From positions 1-45,287 of the forward strand of contig JAZDKW010000015.1 in the NCBI GenBank assembly GCA_043802665.1: 45,287 nucleotides of DNA, in the 5' to 3' direction. Both the position numbers and the translations under genes were made by a program. This DNA comes from Patescibacteria group bacterium. Lineage in GTDB: Bacteria; Patescibacteriota; Kazan-3B-28; UBA10110. The notes beneath the pieces were generated by a model. The model was not told the DNA's origin. It did not search any database and saw only the letters and a list, made by a program, of their open reading frames with translations. Position 1 is the first letter of the stretch. Each line of letters begins with the position of its first letter. Of this stretch, positions 285 to 6,708 are shown in pieces.

Positions 285-318
285 GAACGGCTCAACGGGG
301 TGAGCCGTTGAGCCGTTC
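285..318. repeat. AACGGCTCAAC palindromic repeat, copy 1
   Basis: 14-bp stem GAACGGCTCAACGG/CCGTTGAGCCGTTC, 6-nt loop; related copies at 2631, 5531, 44195, 45010. Confidence 0.9.
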
Positions 319-1631: not shown

Positions 1632-2492
1632 ATGCCAGAGTTACCAGAAGTAGAAACGATTGTGGGTGAGTTAAAAAGAGGCCTTGCCGGGGCGACTATT
1701 TTGGATGCCACTTTTTCTCGCCCCAAGCTGATTAAAAATATCTCCTATCCCACCTTCAGAAAAACTATCAAAGGGAAAACAATCCAAAAAATTGAGCGGA
1801 GGGCAAAATACATTCTTATTCATCTTTCTGGAAATAAAACTCTAATTCTCCATCTGGGAATGACCGGGCGGCTCCTCTTACACCCCCAAAAAGAGAAGGG
1901 ACAAGTAGTTAATCTCAAAACCAAGAAGAAAGAGCCGGATCGCTTTATCCGGGGACAATTTTTCTTAAATAAGGATAGGGTTTTGGATTTCTCCGATCTG
2001 CGGCTTTTCGGCAGAGTTTATCTGGTTGATACTAAAACGCTCCTTCAAAAAAAGCCAATCAAAAAATTAGGGGTTGACCCGCTCTCTAAAAACTTCACCT
2101 ATTCCCTCTTTACCGACCAACTCGCAAAAAGAAGAGGAAAAGTTAAAACTATTCTGATGAATCAAACTTTTTTGGCCGGAATTGGGAACATCTACAGCGA
2201 CGAGATTTTATTTGAAGCTAAAATCCACCCCCTTTCCCCCGTCCAAAAGTTAAAGCCTTCTCAAGTTAAGACACTTTACGCGGCCATCAAAAAAATCCTC
2301 AAAAAAGGGGTTAGGTATCGCGGGACTTCGGATTCCGACTATTTTGACCTCCAAGGAGAGACCGGAAACTTCCAAAAACATCTCAAGGTTTATGGCAAAA
2401 CCGGCCAACCTTGTTTCCGCTGTCCCGGAAAAGTGGAACGCCTAAAAGTCGGTGGCCGCAGTGCCCACTTCTGTTCAATGTGTCAACATTGA
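1632..2492 (+). CDS. mutM: Formamidopyrimidine-DNA glycosylase (Fpg)
   Basis: N-terminal PELPEVE, HLGMTG, H2TH GIGNIYSDE, C-terminal CxxC...CxxC zinc finger. Confidence 0.97.
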   Translation: MPELPEVETIVGELKRGLAGATILDATFSRPKLIKNISYPTFRKTIKGKTIQKIERRAKYILIHLSGNKTLILHLGMTGRLLLHPQKEKGQVVNLKTKKKEPDRFIRGQFFLNKDRVLDFSDLRLFGRVYLVDTKTLLQKKPIKKLGVDPLSKNFTYSLFTDQLAKRRGKVKTILMNQTFLAGIGNIYSDEILFEAKIHPLSPVQKLKPSQVKTLYAAIKKILKKGVRYRGTSDSDYFDLQGETGNFQKHLKVYGKTGQPCFRCPGKVERLKVGGRSAHFCSMCQH

Positions 2493-2680
2493 CCCCGAGC
2501 TAGTCGAAGGGCCATTTTTGCCCCCTCTGCCAGTCTTCGCTACATTCGTAGCTTCGCCTGGTTTCACCAAAAATAACCCCTCCCATACCTCCCCTTAATA
2601 AAGGGGAGGAGAGGTGGGGATGTGTTTCTCAACGGCTCAACCCGCTGAGCCGTTTAAAAATATCTCTGGGCTGGTTTTGG
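2493..2680. repeat. Cluster of short palindromic repeats
   Basis: CCGAGCTAGTCGAAGG (2495-2510), CCTCCCCTT-N4-AAGGGGAGG (2588-2609), AACGGCTCA-N6-TGAGCCGTT (2631-2654), GGGCTGGTTTT variant near 2668-2678. Confidence 0.75.
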
Positions 2681-2686
2681 AGAACG

Positions 2687-2713
2687 AAAAAGCCCCCGCT
2701 AAACAGCAGGGGC
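2687..2713 (-). terminator. Intrinsic terminator
   Basis: GCCCCTGCT-GTTT-AGCGGGGGC then TTTTT on minus strand. Confidence 0.75.
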
Positions 2714-2829
2714 ATTGAAAGATTATTTCTAAAAAAGTTCATTCGAAGTCAGGTTTTTGCCCATAAGTAATGGCCAGCGGAATCGAACTTGAACAAACAC
2801 ATGTTGTAGTTAGGCAACAACCACTGCTG

Positions 2830-3405
2830 TCAATATTCTTCTCTCCTTCTCTCATCTTCTCTTCTCTCGTCATCTCTTCTATCGTCGTCTCTCCTTCTCT
2901 CATCTTCTTTTCTCTCATCTTCTCTTCTTTCTTCATCTCTTCTTCTCTCGTCATCTTCTCTCCTCTCGTCATCTCTTCTCTCGTCGTCTCTCCTCCAGCC
3001 TTCTCTCATCTCTTCATCTCTTCTCTCATCTTCTCTCGTCTGGTATTCTATTCTCTCGTATTCTCTTCTCTCCTCTTCTTCCTCTCGTATTCTCTCATCG
3101 TCTCTCCTCTTCTTCCTCTTATCTTCTCCCGTCCAGTATTCTCTTCTCTCGTCTTCTTCGTCTCCTTCCTCTCGTATTCTTCGTCTCCTTCTCTCGTCTT
3201 CTTCCTCTTTATCCTCTCGTCTTCTCTTCTCTTGTTGTTCTCTCCGGTATGCTAATTCACCATTCAAAGCGTTTGACTCTATCAAGACTGCCCCAATAAT
3301 AATGAGAACAATAACGAGAAAAATAGGGAGAATTGGAATATCTGCGCGAAAAGTTATGGTCAGCAAGAGTGCAGCGATCATCAGAAAAAAGAATATCTGT
3401 CGCAT
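2830..3405 (-). CDS. Membrane-anchored protein with R/E/D low-complexity tail
   Basis: AGGAGGT SD and promoter upstream; two hydrophobic N-terminal segments then about 135 aa dominated by R, E, D (DERR repeats). Confidence 0.7.
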   Translation of the reverse strand: MRQIFFFLMIAALLLTITFRADIPILPIFLVIVLIIIGAVLIESNALNGELAYRREQQEKRRREDKEEEDERRRRRIREEGDEEDERREYWTGEDKRKKRRDDERIREEEEERREYERIEYQTREDERRDEEMREGWRRDDERRDDERREDDERRRDEERREDERKEDERRRDDDRRDDERREDERRREEY

Positions 3406-3543
3406 TTTAGCGACCTCCTTTTTGGGATTAGTTGGGTTGGATTGTCAAGGTGCCTTTCTGCCCCTATTTATATCAAGCCATTGTTGGCGATTATAGGTGG
3501 CAATCAAGTCAGCTATATTATGGCATATGGAGGAGTTTGTCAA
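3406..3543 (-). promoter_or_regulatory. Duplicated promoter/leader module, copy A
   Basis: TTGACA (3543-3538)-N17-TAATAT (3520-3515), leader hairpin, GCACCTTGACAA, AAGGAGGT; 27-bp and 20-bp blocks identical to 5343-5468. Confidence 0.85.
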
Positions 3544-3708
3544 TGGAACCCTTAGCCACCATTGCCGTCTTAGCGCACCAGTCTACGCTATAGCGTATAC
3601 TCATGCGTTCTGGTTTCAAACCAGCCATTGGAGCCTGAGCGTTTTTTCTATCCCTACTCCGGCCATTGGAGGAGAGGCGTCAATGAAATGAGTTCAGGGC
3701 GTGACACG

Positions 3709-3737
3709 AAAAAACCCCTTGAATCTCAAGGGGTTTT
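3709..3737 (-). terminator. Intrinsic terminator
   Basis: AAAACCCCTTGA-N3-TCAAGGGGTTTT inverted repeat with T tract. Confidence 0.85.
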
Positions 3738-3760
3738 GAAATATTATCCGAAAAGGTTCA

Positions 3761-4348
3761 TCAAAGGACGGGAACGACCGGAACACAACTCTGCGCCGTA
3801 TGATTGAAATACATGGCCCAGTTGTTGCCTGGGAAAGGATAACCCTTGCCCCAAGCTGTCTCTTCCTGAACCACTTCATGCTGAGACACCGCAGTACTTT
3901 CGCCCAGCCTCCAAACCTTCGCATGGGCCGCGACATAAAGCATTGTACCATCAGACCAAAGGCTCCGGTCAATCCAGCTGTCGATGGTGTAAGCGAATTG
4001 CCCGACTTTCGGATTCCCCGTCTTGGTTTGGGGAATACCTTCCAGGGAATCAGACACGGCAACGTGCGTTTCTACTAATACCCAAGGTGCCCATGTTGTA
4101 TACTCAACATAGACAAACTGAGCATCGTTCGTGACAATGACCCTGCCGATAATCATGTTCTGACCGGCAATGAGAGGTGTCGTGGTTGCCTTACCGCAAT
4201 AAACTGGCGGGAGATAAGAAAGATCCCTTACCTCCGATCCGGACGCTATGGTAGGCATCACAGGACTGACCGCGTTGTCTTTGCCAGCGCATGAAATTAT
4301 GGCAAGCAAAAGCATAGTGATCATCAGAGAAGAAAGTATCTGTCGCAT
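3761..4348 (-). CDS. Putative lipoprotein with uncharacterised beta-rich domain
   Basis: Signal peptide ending AIIS-C; motifs LIAGQ, ETHV, GNPKVGQF, AAHAKV, ETAWG, NNWAMYF; AGGAGGT SD. Confidence 0.8.
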   Translation of the reverse strand: MRQILSSLMITMLLLAIISCAGKDNAVSPVMPTIASGSEVRDLSYLPPVYCGKATTTPLIAGQNMIIGRVIVTNDAQFVYVEYTTWAPWVLVETHVAVSDSLEGIPQTKTGNPKVGQFAYTIDSWIDRSLWSDGTMLYVAAHAKVWRLGESTAVSQHEVVQEETAWGKGYPFPGNNWAMYFNHTAQSCVPVVPVL

Positions 4349-4433
4349 TTTGGCGACCTCCTTTTGGAATTGTAGTTGATTCTATGTCAACAGGTGGAGA
4401 TTAGTATCTCTATCCTGAATTGATGGGATTCGG

Positions 4434-5342
4434 TCATCTTATTAGTCTTCTCAGCTCTTCCCAAGCTTGAAACCCTTCTTCAGTTGCTTGTGAAAGAGGG
4501 GTTTGTTTCAAAAGTTTTTCCGCATCGTACTTGATCTCACTATAAGGATCTTCGATGCTTGCTATCAGCTCCTCCAATTCCCTCTTTCCTCTTTCATGGA
4601 AGTTTTTAGAGTGAAAAAGAGCAGTGCCAACAAGAAATCTTAGCTTATCTCTGTCCAATTTCCTATCTGTGCTTACTTCATTTGCTCTTGCGTTGTAGTT
4701 CAATTTAAGCCAGAAAGGTTCATAATCACTGTACATTTTTAATTGCGTTTCCGCGCCGGACAAGAATAAATAACTTGAAATATCTGGCTCTAGTCCTTGT
4801 TCAGATAGAATTTCAAGAGTGCCTTCAGAGGTTAAATTTTCTATTTCACTAGCCGTGGGAATCTTAGGAATTGTCCATAACTCAGAATGATAAGAATCTA
4901 AATATCTTTCAAGCAAAACATCGTAATCTTGGACAAGTTCCCTTGCAGTGTTTTCAGATCTATCAGATAGTTCTCTGACTTGTTGCATATGGGCATCAGC
5001 TTCGCTAAAATATCTCCTTTGAAATTCTTCTGATTGATACTGTCCCATCTCAGCAAGTTTTTCAGTAGCGGCTTGAACTTCTGCTGTGGCTTGCTGAGCT
5101 TCCCATCTGTATAAAGTTGAATCCAAATTAAATGCTCTTACTGCCGCTTCAGCCGCAAGCGGAGAATCAGGGAAGTCACTGATAATCATTCTGTACCAGT
5201 TCCTTGCGTCTTCAAACTCCGCATTTAGATGGTGTTTTTCTGCTGTTTGAAAAGGGCGTTCCGCTTCATCCTGAGCACAAACAATGACGGAGTAAAAACT
5301 TATAAGTACAATGGTGATCAGAAAAGAAAGTAGCTGTCGCAT
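4434..5342 (-). CDS. Secreted TPR-like helical protein
   Basis: Signal peptide ending VCA-Q; YRMIISDFPDSPLAAEA resembles the BamD/CpoB-type TPR motif; AGGAGGT SD. Confidence 0.75.
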   Translation of the reverse strand: MRQLLSFLITIVLISFYSVIVCAQDEAERPFQTAEKHHLNAEFEDARNWYRMIISDFPDSPLAAEAAVRAFNLDSTLYRWEAQQATAEVQAATEKLAEMGQYQSEEFQRRYFSEADAHMQQVRELSDRSENTARELVQDYDVLLERYLDSYHSELWTIPKIPTASEIENLTSEGTLEILSEQGLEPDISSYLFLSGAETQLKMYSDYEPFWLKLNYNARANEVSTDRKLDRDKLRFLVGTALFHSKNFHERGKRELEELIASIEDPYSEIKYDAEKLLKQTPLSQATEEGFQAWEELRRLIR

Positions 5343-5468
5343 TGTTTGCGACCTCCTTTAGGATAGATTTTCAAGGGGCAACCTGCCCCTATTTATATCA
5401 AGCCATTGTAGGCAATTATAGGTGGCAGTATAGTCAATTATATTATGGCATATGGAGGGGTTTGTCAA
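5343..5468 (-). promoter_or_regulatory. Duplicated promoter/leader module, copy B
   Basis: TTGACA (5468-5463)-N17-TAATAT (5445-5440); homologous to 3406-3543. Confidence 0.85.
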
Positions 5469-5470
5469 AG

Positions 5471-5519
5471 GAGAATTCTATACTCCCACCTCCCCCAGCC
5501 CCTCCTCGGGCAGGAGGGG
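5471..5519 (-). repeat. CCCCTCCTGCC-GAGGAGGGG hairpin repeat
   Basis: Reverse complement nearly identical to 43080-43127. Confidence 0.85.
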
Positions 5520-5530
5520 AATTTCTACCC

Positions 5531-5562
5531 AACGGCTCAACGGGGCGAGCCGTTGAGCCGTT
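5531..5562. repeat. AACGGCTCAAC palindromic repeat, copy 3
   Basis: 13-bp stem AACGGCTCAACGG/CCGTTGAGCCGTT; nearly identical to 285-318. Confidence 0.9.
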
Positions 5563-5571
5563 CGCTTATTT

Positions 5572-5607
5572 AATTACGTAAGGAATTACGTAATTCCTTA
5601 CGTAATT
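5572..5607. repeat. Perfect 36-bp palindrome
   Basis: AATTACGTAAGGAATTACGTAATTCCTTACGTAATT equals its own reverse complement; abuts the recF stop. Confidence 0.9.
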
Positions 5608-6708
5608 CTAAATACCAACGGCCTGTAATTGAGTAGCCCCACCTGCTTTAACTTTAACAATAGTGGCTGTAGGGGTGATGAATCTTTCGTCTGTGGTGGT
5701 ATAGATAGTCTGCCCTGCGCTTAAAAACTTTATCAAAGCCTGGGATTTGTGGGCGTCCAACTCTGAAAATACATCATCCATCAAATAAACCGGGGTTTCA
5801 TTAAACCTCTGCTGGATATATTCTCCTTCAGCTAACTTAAGAGCCAGCACCATCAGGCGGAACTCTCCTTGAGAGGCGGTATTCCGGGCATCCCATCCGT
5901 TTAGGAGAAACATTAAGTCGTCACGGTGCGGACCAAAATTAGTGTGCCCCGATTTAATATCAATCGGTCTGATTTGCACTAATTTTTCCTTATACACCAC
6001 TGGGTCAGTAAATTTAGGTTCCGCCGCATAAATTATGCTAAAATCTTTATTACTTTCGGCAAGAGTATGAAAAAACGGTTTGAGTTTTTGGTTTAACTGC
6101 TCCACCAACTCCAACCGCGCCTGGATGATTCGGCTCCCCAGTTCGGACAATTTAGCATCCCACGCATCGATCTCGATGTAATCCTCCCGCCCTATTTTGG
6201 CTAAAAATAACAATTGGTTGCGTTGCTTTAGAGTTTTGGTGTAATCCAAGAGGTCGGCATGGTAAGCCTTATTGGTGCGGGAGATCAGACTATCTAAAAA
6301 TCCGCGGCGCTGAGCCGGCATAAGCCGCAGTAAACTTACATCATCTGGTGAAAAAATTACCGAGAGTAGTTGCCCCAGTATTTGTTTGCGGGAAACTTTA
6401 GCTCCATTCAGTTTAAATTGTCGTTGAATCGTCTCTTCTCCTCTCTCCCAAACTGCCTCCAAACTGCCTTCGCGGCCATCACTATAAACAAAATTGCTTT
6501 TAATGCAACTAAATAATTCGCCCTGGGTGATTAACCATTCCTCGCGATGAGTTTTGAAAGACGACCCTGCCGACAAATAATAAAGTGCTTCCAAGATATT
6601 GGTTTTACCTTGGGCGTTATCACCAATAATAAAATTAGTGGCACTAAAATTTAGACCGGCCTGGGACAGGTTGCGGAAATTAGTTAACTCAGCCGAAAGA
6701 AGCTTCAT
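5608..6708 (-). CDS. recF: DNA replication/repair protein RecF
   Basis: FRNL, Walker A GDNAQGKTN, GPHRDDL, ASQGE, LMDDVFSELD; follows dnaN. Confidence 0.96.
   Translation of the reverse strand: MKLLSAELTNFRNLSQAGLNFSATNFIIGDNAQGKTNILEALYYLSAGSSFKTHREEWLITQGELFSCIKSNFVYSDGREGSLEAVWERGEETIQRQFKLNGAKVSRKQILGQLLSVIFSPDDVSLLRLMPAQRRGFLDSLISRTNKAYHADLLDYTKTLKQRNQLLFLAKIGREDYIEIDAWDAKLSELGSRIIQARLELVEQLNQKLKPFFHTLAESNKDFSIIYAAEPKFTDPVVYKEKLVQIRPIDIKSGHTNFGPHRDDLMFLLNGWDARNTASQGEFRLMVLALKLAEGEYIQQRFNETPVYLMDDVFSELDAHKSQALIKFLSAGQTIYTTTDERFITPTATIVKVKAGGATQLQAVGI

Follow-up and report, generated by a model that had tools for sequence, protein, structure and literature searches.

A lineage-restricted 5′ cassette before non-homologous envelope genes in one family of ultra-small Patescibacteria

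The ultra-small bacteria of the candidate phyla radiation (CPR; Patescibacteria) are believed to rely on other cells, with surface proteins as the likely point of contact, and to our knowledge almost nothing is known about how CPR surface proteins are expressed and renewed. In Escherichia coli ompA and Lactobacillus slpA, 5′-terminal stem-loops stabilise the mRNAs of abundant envelope proteins. The passages on Mycoplasma agalactiae vpma and M. bovis vsp in PMC2268961 describe a conserved 5′ untranslated region (UTR) and signal-peptide region with no significant homology beyond it, and those on the upstream homology box (UHB) of Borrelia in PMC7002432 describe similar promoter sequences shared by different outer-surface lipoprotein families (Erp: OspE, OspF, Elp). 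Unrelated phytoplasma effectors, such as SAP11 and SAP54, carry one N-terminal signal-peptide motif, SVM, according to the corresponding part of PMC8026896. Here, we describe a 5′ cassette, consisting in its full form of promoter, leader, Shine-Dalgarno (SD) sequence, start hairpin and first codons, which is shared by unrelated genes of a groundwater bacterium of the Patescibacteria. Three of these genes, A, B and C, lie in tandem in the window, i.e., the 45,287-nt stretch of contig JAZDKW010000015.1 (assembly GCA_043802665.1) that was analysed. The assembly, G000 in our numbering, holds 626,583 bases in 28 contigs; its genus and family are referred to as g1 and f1. No description of such a cassette was found among the titles and abstracts of the top-ranked papers in full-text searches on Patescibacteria, and the pattern, known from mycoplasmas and Lyme spirochetes, appears to be new for this group.

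One gene start on unrelated cargoes

The reading that we favour, with roughly even confidence, is that of a lineage-restricted, selected 5′ expression cassette placed before non-homologous accessory envelope genes, analogous to vsp/vpma and the UHB. It would have spread by duplication and recombination to unrelated envelope genes, with the recombination junction inside pre-existing signal-peptide coding regions. The full form begins with a predicted near-consensus sigma-70 promoter and a leader of ~110 nt in which a stem is predicted near the 5′ end. It continues with a 9-10-nt SD, (A)AAGGAGGU, and a predicted 5-bp hairpin, GUCGC/GCGAC, in whose loop the A and U of the start codon lie, and ends with the first 8-20 codons, MRQ(I/L/T)(L/F)S.L...; a short form consists of SD, hairpin and codons only. 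The cassette would thus substitute its own signals for transcription and for the start of translation, together with its own signal-peptide n-region, and the cargo would keep its cleavage site. The likely role would be to provide a changing set of surface proteins with the same strong, co-ordinated expression and translation start.

Genes A, B and C are tandem minus-strand open reading frames (ORFs) between recF (5608-6708) and fpg (1632-2492), starting with MRQIFFFLMIAALLL, MRQILSSLMITMLLL and MRQLLSFLITIVLI, respectively (Table 1). All three gene starts read AAGGAGGTCGC-N4/5-ATGCGACAG, with GGAGGTCGC-N4/5-ATGCGACAG at 3397-3418, 4340-4361 and 5334-5356 of the minus strand. These 3 matches in the window compare with none in any of 100 dinucleotide-shuffled sequences (mean and maximum 0), so that the start module which the original prediction had seen on the three genes is borne out in coordinates and sequence. 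The same applies to the blocks and the TTGACA-N17-TAATAT promoter predicted upstream of A and C: both promoters were found, together with an ungapped 90-nt direct repeat (3458-3547 = 5383-5472; 90% identity; copies 1925 nt apart) that includes identical blocks of 27 and 20 bp. Upstream of gene B, homology to the A copy reaches ~4378, and no promoter match of its own was found there. Given that terminators follow A and B and none lies between C and B, the signals in the DNA suggest that the transcription units are probably a C-B operon and A.

Beyond these three, the start motif occurs twice more in the genome, at C10:13349 and C20:18204 (contig:position), giving five copies in total. The C10 copy has the full promoter and leader and precedes a gene for an SLH-domain protein, meaning that the TTGACA-17-TAATAT promoter and the ~110-nt leader are common to A, C and a gene on another contig. 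At the C20 copy (C20:18188-18263), the ATG opens only a 19-codon ORF. This ORF runs in another frame into the beginning of a gene for a membrane-anchored repeat protein of 261 aa with its own SD and ATG; the copy may represent either an upstream ORF or a graft that has decayed. When the genome was roughly screened for signal-like N-termini, 31 candidates emerged, of which only 4, those of the cassette genes, start with MRQ and the other 27 do not.

Outside this genome, the cassette is confined to close relatives. The start motif is present in 4 of the 26 genomes of the order and 4 of the 401 sampled genomes of the phylum, all belonging to family f1 (five copies in G000, one each in G003 and G004, two in G008), and a reversed-pattern control gave 0 matches everywhere. 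A stricter pattern retrieved 4 metagenome loci, two of which carry the G003 and G008 genes; the other two represent one further B-type gene (B-long) with a different upstream region. Across these copies, a long ORF encoding a hydrophobic leader follows from the start ATG in 9 of 10 cases. Strong matches to R1, a covariance model of the leader, are restricted even further, to genus g1, with 6 copies in 4 of the 26 genomes (three in G000 and one each in G003, G004 and G005); weak matches (E 0.09-0.9) lie in G003:C4, G004:C5 and G020. When the species collection was scanned for exact occurrences of the invariant leader block, 2 records were returned, both titled as metagenome-assembled genomes (MAGs) of uncultured Candidatus Saccharibacteria. 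The two cassette genes of G008 adjoin each other and have another proximal upstream box in common, CACATAGATTTC, which also resembles ACATAGAAT ahead of gene B and AGATAGATTT ahead of the metagenome B-long gene.

The cargoes are unrelated to each other. In blastp comparisons among the mature parts of A, B, C, the SLH protein, the C20 protein and a DUF4352 protein of G008, the best E was 0.7, and a profile alignment (hhalign) of the B family with the C family was limited to 17 signal-peptide columns, at a probability of 2%; moreover, B is all-beta and C is predicted to be all-alpha. The mature regions are, therefore, as unrelated as originally predicted, and neither search revealed them to be remote paralogues. 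Ordinary paralogues of the same genome look different: the small lipoproteins at G000:C10:54608 and G000:C2:39872 share leader as well as mature N-terminus (TSCKGNIKGAGVPQEPG, ISCKGKIGGPNVPKEPG).

The cargoes are also mostly accessory. Those of A, C, SLH and C20 are each found in 0 of 12 other genomes of the family, and the whole domain of gene B only in G004, with G003 and G008 matching residues 1-30/31, i.e., the leader, alone. Instead, other copies of the leader precede an 834-aa lipoprotein with SBBP repeats (G003) and an 852-aa lipoprotein (G008), which have a common N-terminal domain, a long form of B, encoded by the metagenome gene, with beta-propeller repeats of the SBBP type (in G004, the form of B has similar repeats, as judged by eye), and the DUF4352 protein of 202 aa (G008). 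A search of the species collection with an alignment of the SLH cargo yielded no relative. The suggestion that the cargoes might derive from a host found no indication in these comparisons, which included no test of where the cargoes come from taxonomically.

Junction within the signal peptide and conservation of the cassette

Comparison of copies with different cargo locates the end of homology. Codons 1-5 are identical at 11-15 of 15 nt and codons 6-10 mostly at 8-13 of 15 nt (4-14 over all pairs); beyond nt 45-60, or ~nt 90 in the case of lipoprotein-type leaders, identity is random, and A and B share ~20 codons. Similarity does end within the signal peptide, as had been claimed, although codon by codon it is the front part, and not always the whole, that is shared. 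In NCBIfam, no named signal-peptide family was matched, and the only hits were compositional and below threshold. The cleavage types are mixed: B has a lipobox (IISC), and the sites of C (VCA/QDE) and of the SLH protein (VQA/DEN) look like those of signal peptidase I.

Homologues of the cargoes show what stands at the same place elsewhere. Those of the SLH protein at 58, 55 and 44% identity start with MNYHFPEEPLMKIKI.., MAMKIKI.. and MRVRF.., respectively; the two closer ones agree with the C10 copy in ..ALIV.F..V..V(Q/R)ADE, which covers the remainder of the signal peptide including its cleavage site, and the third shares the mature part only. A homologue of gene C at 63% identity starts with MNKIIKRNLV.. 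and shares FY.V..C, and among more distant C-family proteins, each of the nine inspected has another leader. For gene B, four homologues at 77-79% identity start with MRQ, and those at up to 54% carry other lipoprotein leaders. Distant homologues of B, C and SLH hence do not already possess the leader of the cassette. This pattern suggests that the cassette replaced the upstream region and roughly the first 10-14 codons, and that the cargo kept its own cleavage site. Because the relatives of C and SLH already have signal peptides, the cassette does not confer export. Of the "express-and-export front end" put forward in the original prediction, the front end shared by non-homologous cargo is retained, whereas export is not, given that relatives of C and SLH keep the same C-terminal half of the signal peptide.

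The most strongly conserved part of the cassette surrounds the start codon. AAGGAGGTCGC (11 nt) and ATGCGACA (8 nt) are identical in all 10 copies except for one C-to-T change, which keeps a G-U pair, while the loop between the hairpin arms GUCGC/GCGAC varies in sequence and in length (6-9 nt); the resulting palindrome spans 16-19 nt, and the hairpin is part of the predicted minimum-energy fold in 8 of 9 copies. The codon CGA accounts for 15% of Arg codons genome-wide, yet it is used in 10 of 10 leaders. The SD, (A)AAGGAGGU, is complementary to the 16S rRNA 3′ end ..ACACCUCCUUUCU as read in 4 relatives, this end not having been found in the present assembly. We considered CGC as an extension of the SD:anti-SD pairing and ruled it out, since the 16S 3′ ends of the 4 relatives read ..GGAACACCTCCTTTCTA. 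With CGC lying outside the anti-SD complementarity, the simplest reason for its conservation would be pairing in the hairpin with the GCG of AUG-CGA.

Further upstream, conservation likewise exceeds the neutral expectation. Of the five other genomes of the genus, four encode RecF proteins 73-78% identical to that of G000 (G002: 50%), a distance at which neutral DNA should be unalignable. Nevertheless, the leaders are 70-86% identical in nucleotide sequence, with the same spread within the genome (70-85%) as between species (71-86%), which indicates old copies kept by selection rather than recent duplication or conversion. The -35 hexamer is invariant in 6 of 6 full copies, and so is the 15-nt block UGGCUUGAWAUAAAU in 6 of 6 leaders. 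Homology begins at the -35 box, its 3′ edge differing from pair to pair. The invariant block also contains a mini-ORF, AUG GCU UGA (GUG in G004; window 3477-3485), with no SD ahead of it.

Several observations weigh against the favoured reading. The direction of grafting is inferred from parsimony, and for gene C, whose 63% homologue has a leader that can be aligned from end to end, if weakly, divergence rather than replacement could also be the explanation. Fusion to a secreted cargo is not universal: the C20 copy gives a 19-codon ORF, and the leader copy on G005:C3, at a contig end, has a decayed SD and start (AAGGAAGGTTGGCCAGAACAG) and lies ~60 nt ahead of thrS (named threonyl-tRNA synthetase by eye from its N-terminal sequence). 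Covariation in the leader comes from 6 related copies, with both sides changing in 3 of 10 pairs of helix P1, in one pair of H2 and never in H1. The start regions are not unusually structured either: compared with 105 other gene starts, those of the cassette genes (80 nt) fall at percentiles 0.34-0.56 for minimum free energy (MFE) and 0.04-0.53 for SD-to-AUG accessibility, implying that the hairpin is no strong block. Finally, no RNA run covering region 2600-5700 was found; one run gave few contigs, less than 95% alike and only partly on the region.

Alternative explanations and the surroundings of the cassette

A regulatory switch at the core of the cassette, either a leader RNA or a DNA operator that would respond to a signal or bind a factor and thereby govern access to the SD, with the linked surface genes as its regulon, is the alternative that survives best, even though we hold it to be unlikely. 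At the RNA level, segment 2 of the leader (AUAGGGGCAG) would have two alternative partners, segment 1 (CUGCCACCUAU), forming P1, and segment 3 (GCMCC), forming H2, and the CCUU of segment 3 could pair with the AAGG of the SD. RNAalifold predicts P1 near the 5′ end enclosing H1, followed by CCUU:AAGG and the start hairpin, and both folds reach 93-94% pairing against 30-50% in slid controls (93.7% of cells versus 37-50% for P1, H1, anti-SD and start hairpin; 93.2% versus 30-46% for the alternative with H2, which shares one strand with P1). In segment 2, a single column (G or U) covaries both with segment 1 and with segment 3, the partner being C or A in either of them; changes on both sides are seen in 4 pairs of the structure with P1 and in 2 pairs of that with H2. 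The invariant 15-nt block also speaks for a switch, as does the start region of gene A (MFE -11.7 kcal/mol, z -3.4), in which the SD is additionally paired with the downstream U-tract of codons 4-7. However, the leader is absent from 5 of 10 copies (B, C20, the two of G008 and the metagenome B-long gene), the SD region is no less accessible than the genome background, and the known sequences are 6 related ones from a single genus. H1 never covaries, so a DNA or protein recognition site fits it as well as an RNA helix. Rfam 15, searched over 2400-5800 at E ≤1, gave one match (E 0.6; 3711-3743), located outside the leader. On account of the few related sequences, the missing covariation of H1, the ordinary accessibility of the start and the lack of an Rfam match to the leader, we keep a stabilising leader for strong expression as the default and regulation as its rival.

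A more far-reaching version, for which the odds appear rather poor, is a natural "expression trap" that combines a genus-specific riboregulator with a dedicated factor acting on the start hairpin, so that surface genes are switched together. The leader would toggle between pairing of segments 1:2 and 2:3, freeing or hiding the anti-SD; the invariant start hairpin would be the landing site of the factor; and recombination within signal-peptide codons would place newly acquired surface genes under one switch. If this were true, the variable surface proteome of a probably episymbiotic cell would be turned on together, for instance upon contact with a host cell.

Phase or antigenic variation of the Mycoplasma vsp/vpma type, in which recombination at conserved 5′ regions moves a promoter or swaps the cargo, would account for three tandem copies within 2.6 kb, for 90-nt direct repeats 1925 nt apart and for cargoes that are strain- or species-specific; a conserved 5′ UTR and signal-peptide region on unrelated mature parts is, moreover, what the vpma/vsp account describes (PMC2268961). 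We nevertheless judge it improbable. The genome has a single match to tyrosine recombinases (PF00589), on contig C2 and near no copy, and the flanking ORFs at 383-913 and 1078-1494 belong to no Pfam family, serine recombinases not having been searched for near the copies. The copies of the window all have the same orientation, and there are no silent cassettes among them, since a promoter precedes each of two copies and the remaining one is part of an operon. Homogenisation is absent: copies within the genome are no more alike (70-85%) than copies of different species (71-86%), which argues against ongoing conversion. In contigs assembled from 3 DNA runs, no joints were seen, the depth being ~2-6 and the pieces 150-460 nt long, many of them identical to the window. 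The active gene-capture or diversification system of the original prediction is thus not supported: no recombinase nearby, terminal repeats or rearranged contigs were found, and divergence is equal within and between genomes.

The start hairpin could conceivably be a small mobile element that inserts at start codons and rebuilds SD and ATG, with an N-terminus encoded by the element, and the C20 copy, a 19-codon ORF ahead of a gene with its own SD and ATG, would suit this idea. It is very improbable, given that the three full copies have no terminal inverted repeat in common, that genomes hold at most 5 copies (0-2 in relatives and 0 in 397 of the 401 phylum genomes), that only the decayed G005 copy precedes a housekeeping gene (thrS), that 9 of 10 ATGs open a long ORF with a hydrophobic leader and the palindrome measures just 16-19 nt, and that homology has a fixed 5′ edge at the -35 box and a variable 3′ edge. 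Functionless leftovers of a recent segmental duplication, or chance likeness of signal peptides, which are alike in composition and whose U-rich codons align easily, can practically be set aside: 100 shuffles and, in forward or reversed form, the 397 other genomes gave 0 matches, the other 27 signal-like N-termini lack MRQ, and the copies are old, yet hairpin arms, SD and 15-nt block are invariant while the loop drifts.

With regard to the gene products, gene B encodes a lipoprotein leader with the lipobox I-I-S-C ending at Cys20, and the genome encodes the corresponding machinery (Lgt, E 2.0e-65; LspA, E 3.6e-24). Its mature part is an all-beta domain (predicted model, pLDDT 85) of a widespread unnamed family with 96 database relatives besides the window protein; the few source names displayed include Eisenbacteria, Atribacterota and one Nitrososphaeria archaeon, and the family profile matched no solved structure by sequence. 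Gene C encodes a signal peptide, a TPR-like N-terminal repeat and a predicted all-helical body (model of low confidence, pLDDT 47, used for the secondary-structure class only), and belongs to a family of proteins of ~270-320 aa, as found in an exhaustive profile search. The cargo of the C10 copy is a 260-aa protein with Pfam SLH matches in 2 stretches (E 2.3e-11; 43.9 bits versus a cut-off of 20.8). Gene A has a B-type lipoprotein leader that is disabled, because the Cys codon of the lipobox, TGC, reads CGC (Arg). A second hydrophobic segment follows, and then a tail of ~130 residues composed almost entirely of R, E and D, whose DNA (2830-3250) consists of imperfect 15-nt repeats, up to 15 copies; the opposite strand contains a spurious 161-aa ORF rich in S, L and F. 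By the positive-inside rule, the tail most likely stays in the cytoplasm, which, together with the second hydrophobic segment, makes export of this protein doubtful. Thus, of the three exported proteins originally predicted, B and C have signal peptides and A is questionable. In the ESM Atlas, gene A had no usable feature match and only weak structural look-alikes (TM score <0.5).

The block sits at a variable spot, since the recF-fpg interval holds other genes in relatives. In G004, G005, G001 and G003, recF is followed by an ORF of 98-105 aa, which we take to be DUF721-like, and by convergent fpg, with further genes in the interval in G001 and G003. This ORF was not found in G000 with that query, and A, B and C occupy its place.

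Table 1. Features of the three-gene block and of its flanks, in window coordinates
Feature	Positions	Strand	Detail
Gene A	2830-3405	minus	191 aa
Gene B	3761-4348	minus	195 aa
Gene C	4434-5342	minus	302 aa
Predicted promoter of the C-B unit, TTGACA-17-TAATAT	5440-5468	minus	10/12 consensus matches
Predicted promoter of gene A, TTGACA-17-TAATAT	3515-3543	minus	consensus match
Predicted structured 5′ leader before gene C	5367-5439	minus	covariance model R1, 85.9 bits, E 2.4e-19
Predicted structured 5′ leader before gene A	3441-3514	minus	covariance model R1, 96.2 bits, E 3.8e-22
Gene C SD AAGGAGGU and predicted start hairpin GUCGC-AAACAAU-GCGAC holding AUG	5334-5358	minus	
Gene B short-form cassette, SD and predicted hairpin GUCGC-CAAAAU-GCGAC	4340-4363	minus	
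Gene A SD and predicted start hairpin GUCGC-UAAAAU-GCGAC	3397-3420	minus	
Terminator-like hairpin and T-run after gene B	3715-3732	minus	
Predicted intrinsic terminator after gene A	2692-2713	minus	9-pair stem and T-run
REP-like palindrome AACGGCTCAAC..GAGCCGTT	2631-2654	.	genome-wide repeat, not cassette-specific
Second flanking REP-like palindrome copy	5531-5554	.	repeat search

A 43-nt direct repeat flanking the block (2612-2654 and 5512-5554) was considered as the ends of an inserted segment and rejected, its palindromic core being a repeat present in 19 copies genome-wide. This palindrome, AACGGCTCAAC-N-GTTGAGCCGTT, occurs behind gene ends, 4 times in the window (286-309, 2631-2654, 5531-5554 and 45023-46), compared with 0 in 100 shuffles. 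The genome has 19 copies, many of them in pairs, and the palindrome constitutes a family resembling repetitive extragenic palindromes (REP) or terminators. Directly after the recF stop lies a perfect 36-nt palindrome of TTACGTAA units (5572-5607), which occurs once in the genome; the 8-mer TTACGTAA itself occurs 13 times.

Comparison with described surface-gene systems

On the favoured reading, one lineage would re-use a single promoter, leader and start cassette on changing, unrelated envelope genes, with the join inside the signal peptide. The tag AAGGAGGTCGY-N4-9-ATGCGACAR would then offer a means to find the accessory surface genes of this lineage, and the leader would be a compact candidate regulatory element. 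The groundwater bacterium would also provide, in a third, unrelated group with small genomes, a parallel to the surface-gene families of mycoplasmas and Borrelia.

The vpma/vsp genes are among the most similar systems. The trait that characterises them, a conserved 5′ UTR and signal-peptide region followed by unrelated sequence, is found here as well, and the two systems further have in common clustered genes, a very small genome and surface lipoproteins. They differ in that an adjacent Xer1 inverts the DNA in mycoplasmas, so that one promoter serves one gene, whereas no such adjacent enzyme was found in the window, where two consensus promoters and two terminators serve three minus-strand genes rather than a single promoter with silent copies. 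Furthermore, not all cargoes of the present cassette are lipoproteins, and what they share of the signal peptide is its front part only.

The likeness to the UHB, which is no more than an analogy, lies in a promoter and leader common to A, C and the SLH gene and to single genes of G003, G004 and G005. Borrelia Erp genes are carried on cp32 prophage plasmids, and proteins binding their operator are known, whereas the copies described here adjoin housekeeping genes (recF and fpg in the window). With the SVM motif, the cassette shares the principle of one signal-peptide start on unrelated secreted proteins. However, SVM is defined at the protein level and is tied to mobile units, whereas the strongest conservation here is in the non-coding SD and hairpin, and PF12113 (SVM_signal) matched none of A, B, C and SLH at E up to 1. 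Finally, ompA and slpA bear no sequence relation to the cassette but resemble it in the long leader on envelope genes, including an SLH gene, and in the stem predicted to lie a few nucleotides from the predicted 5′ end.

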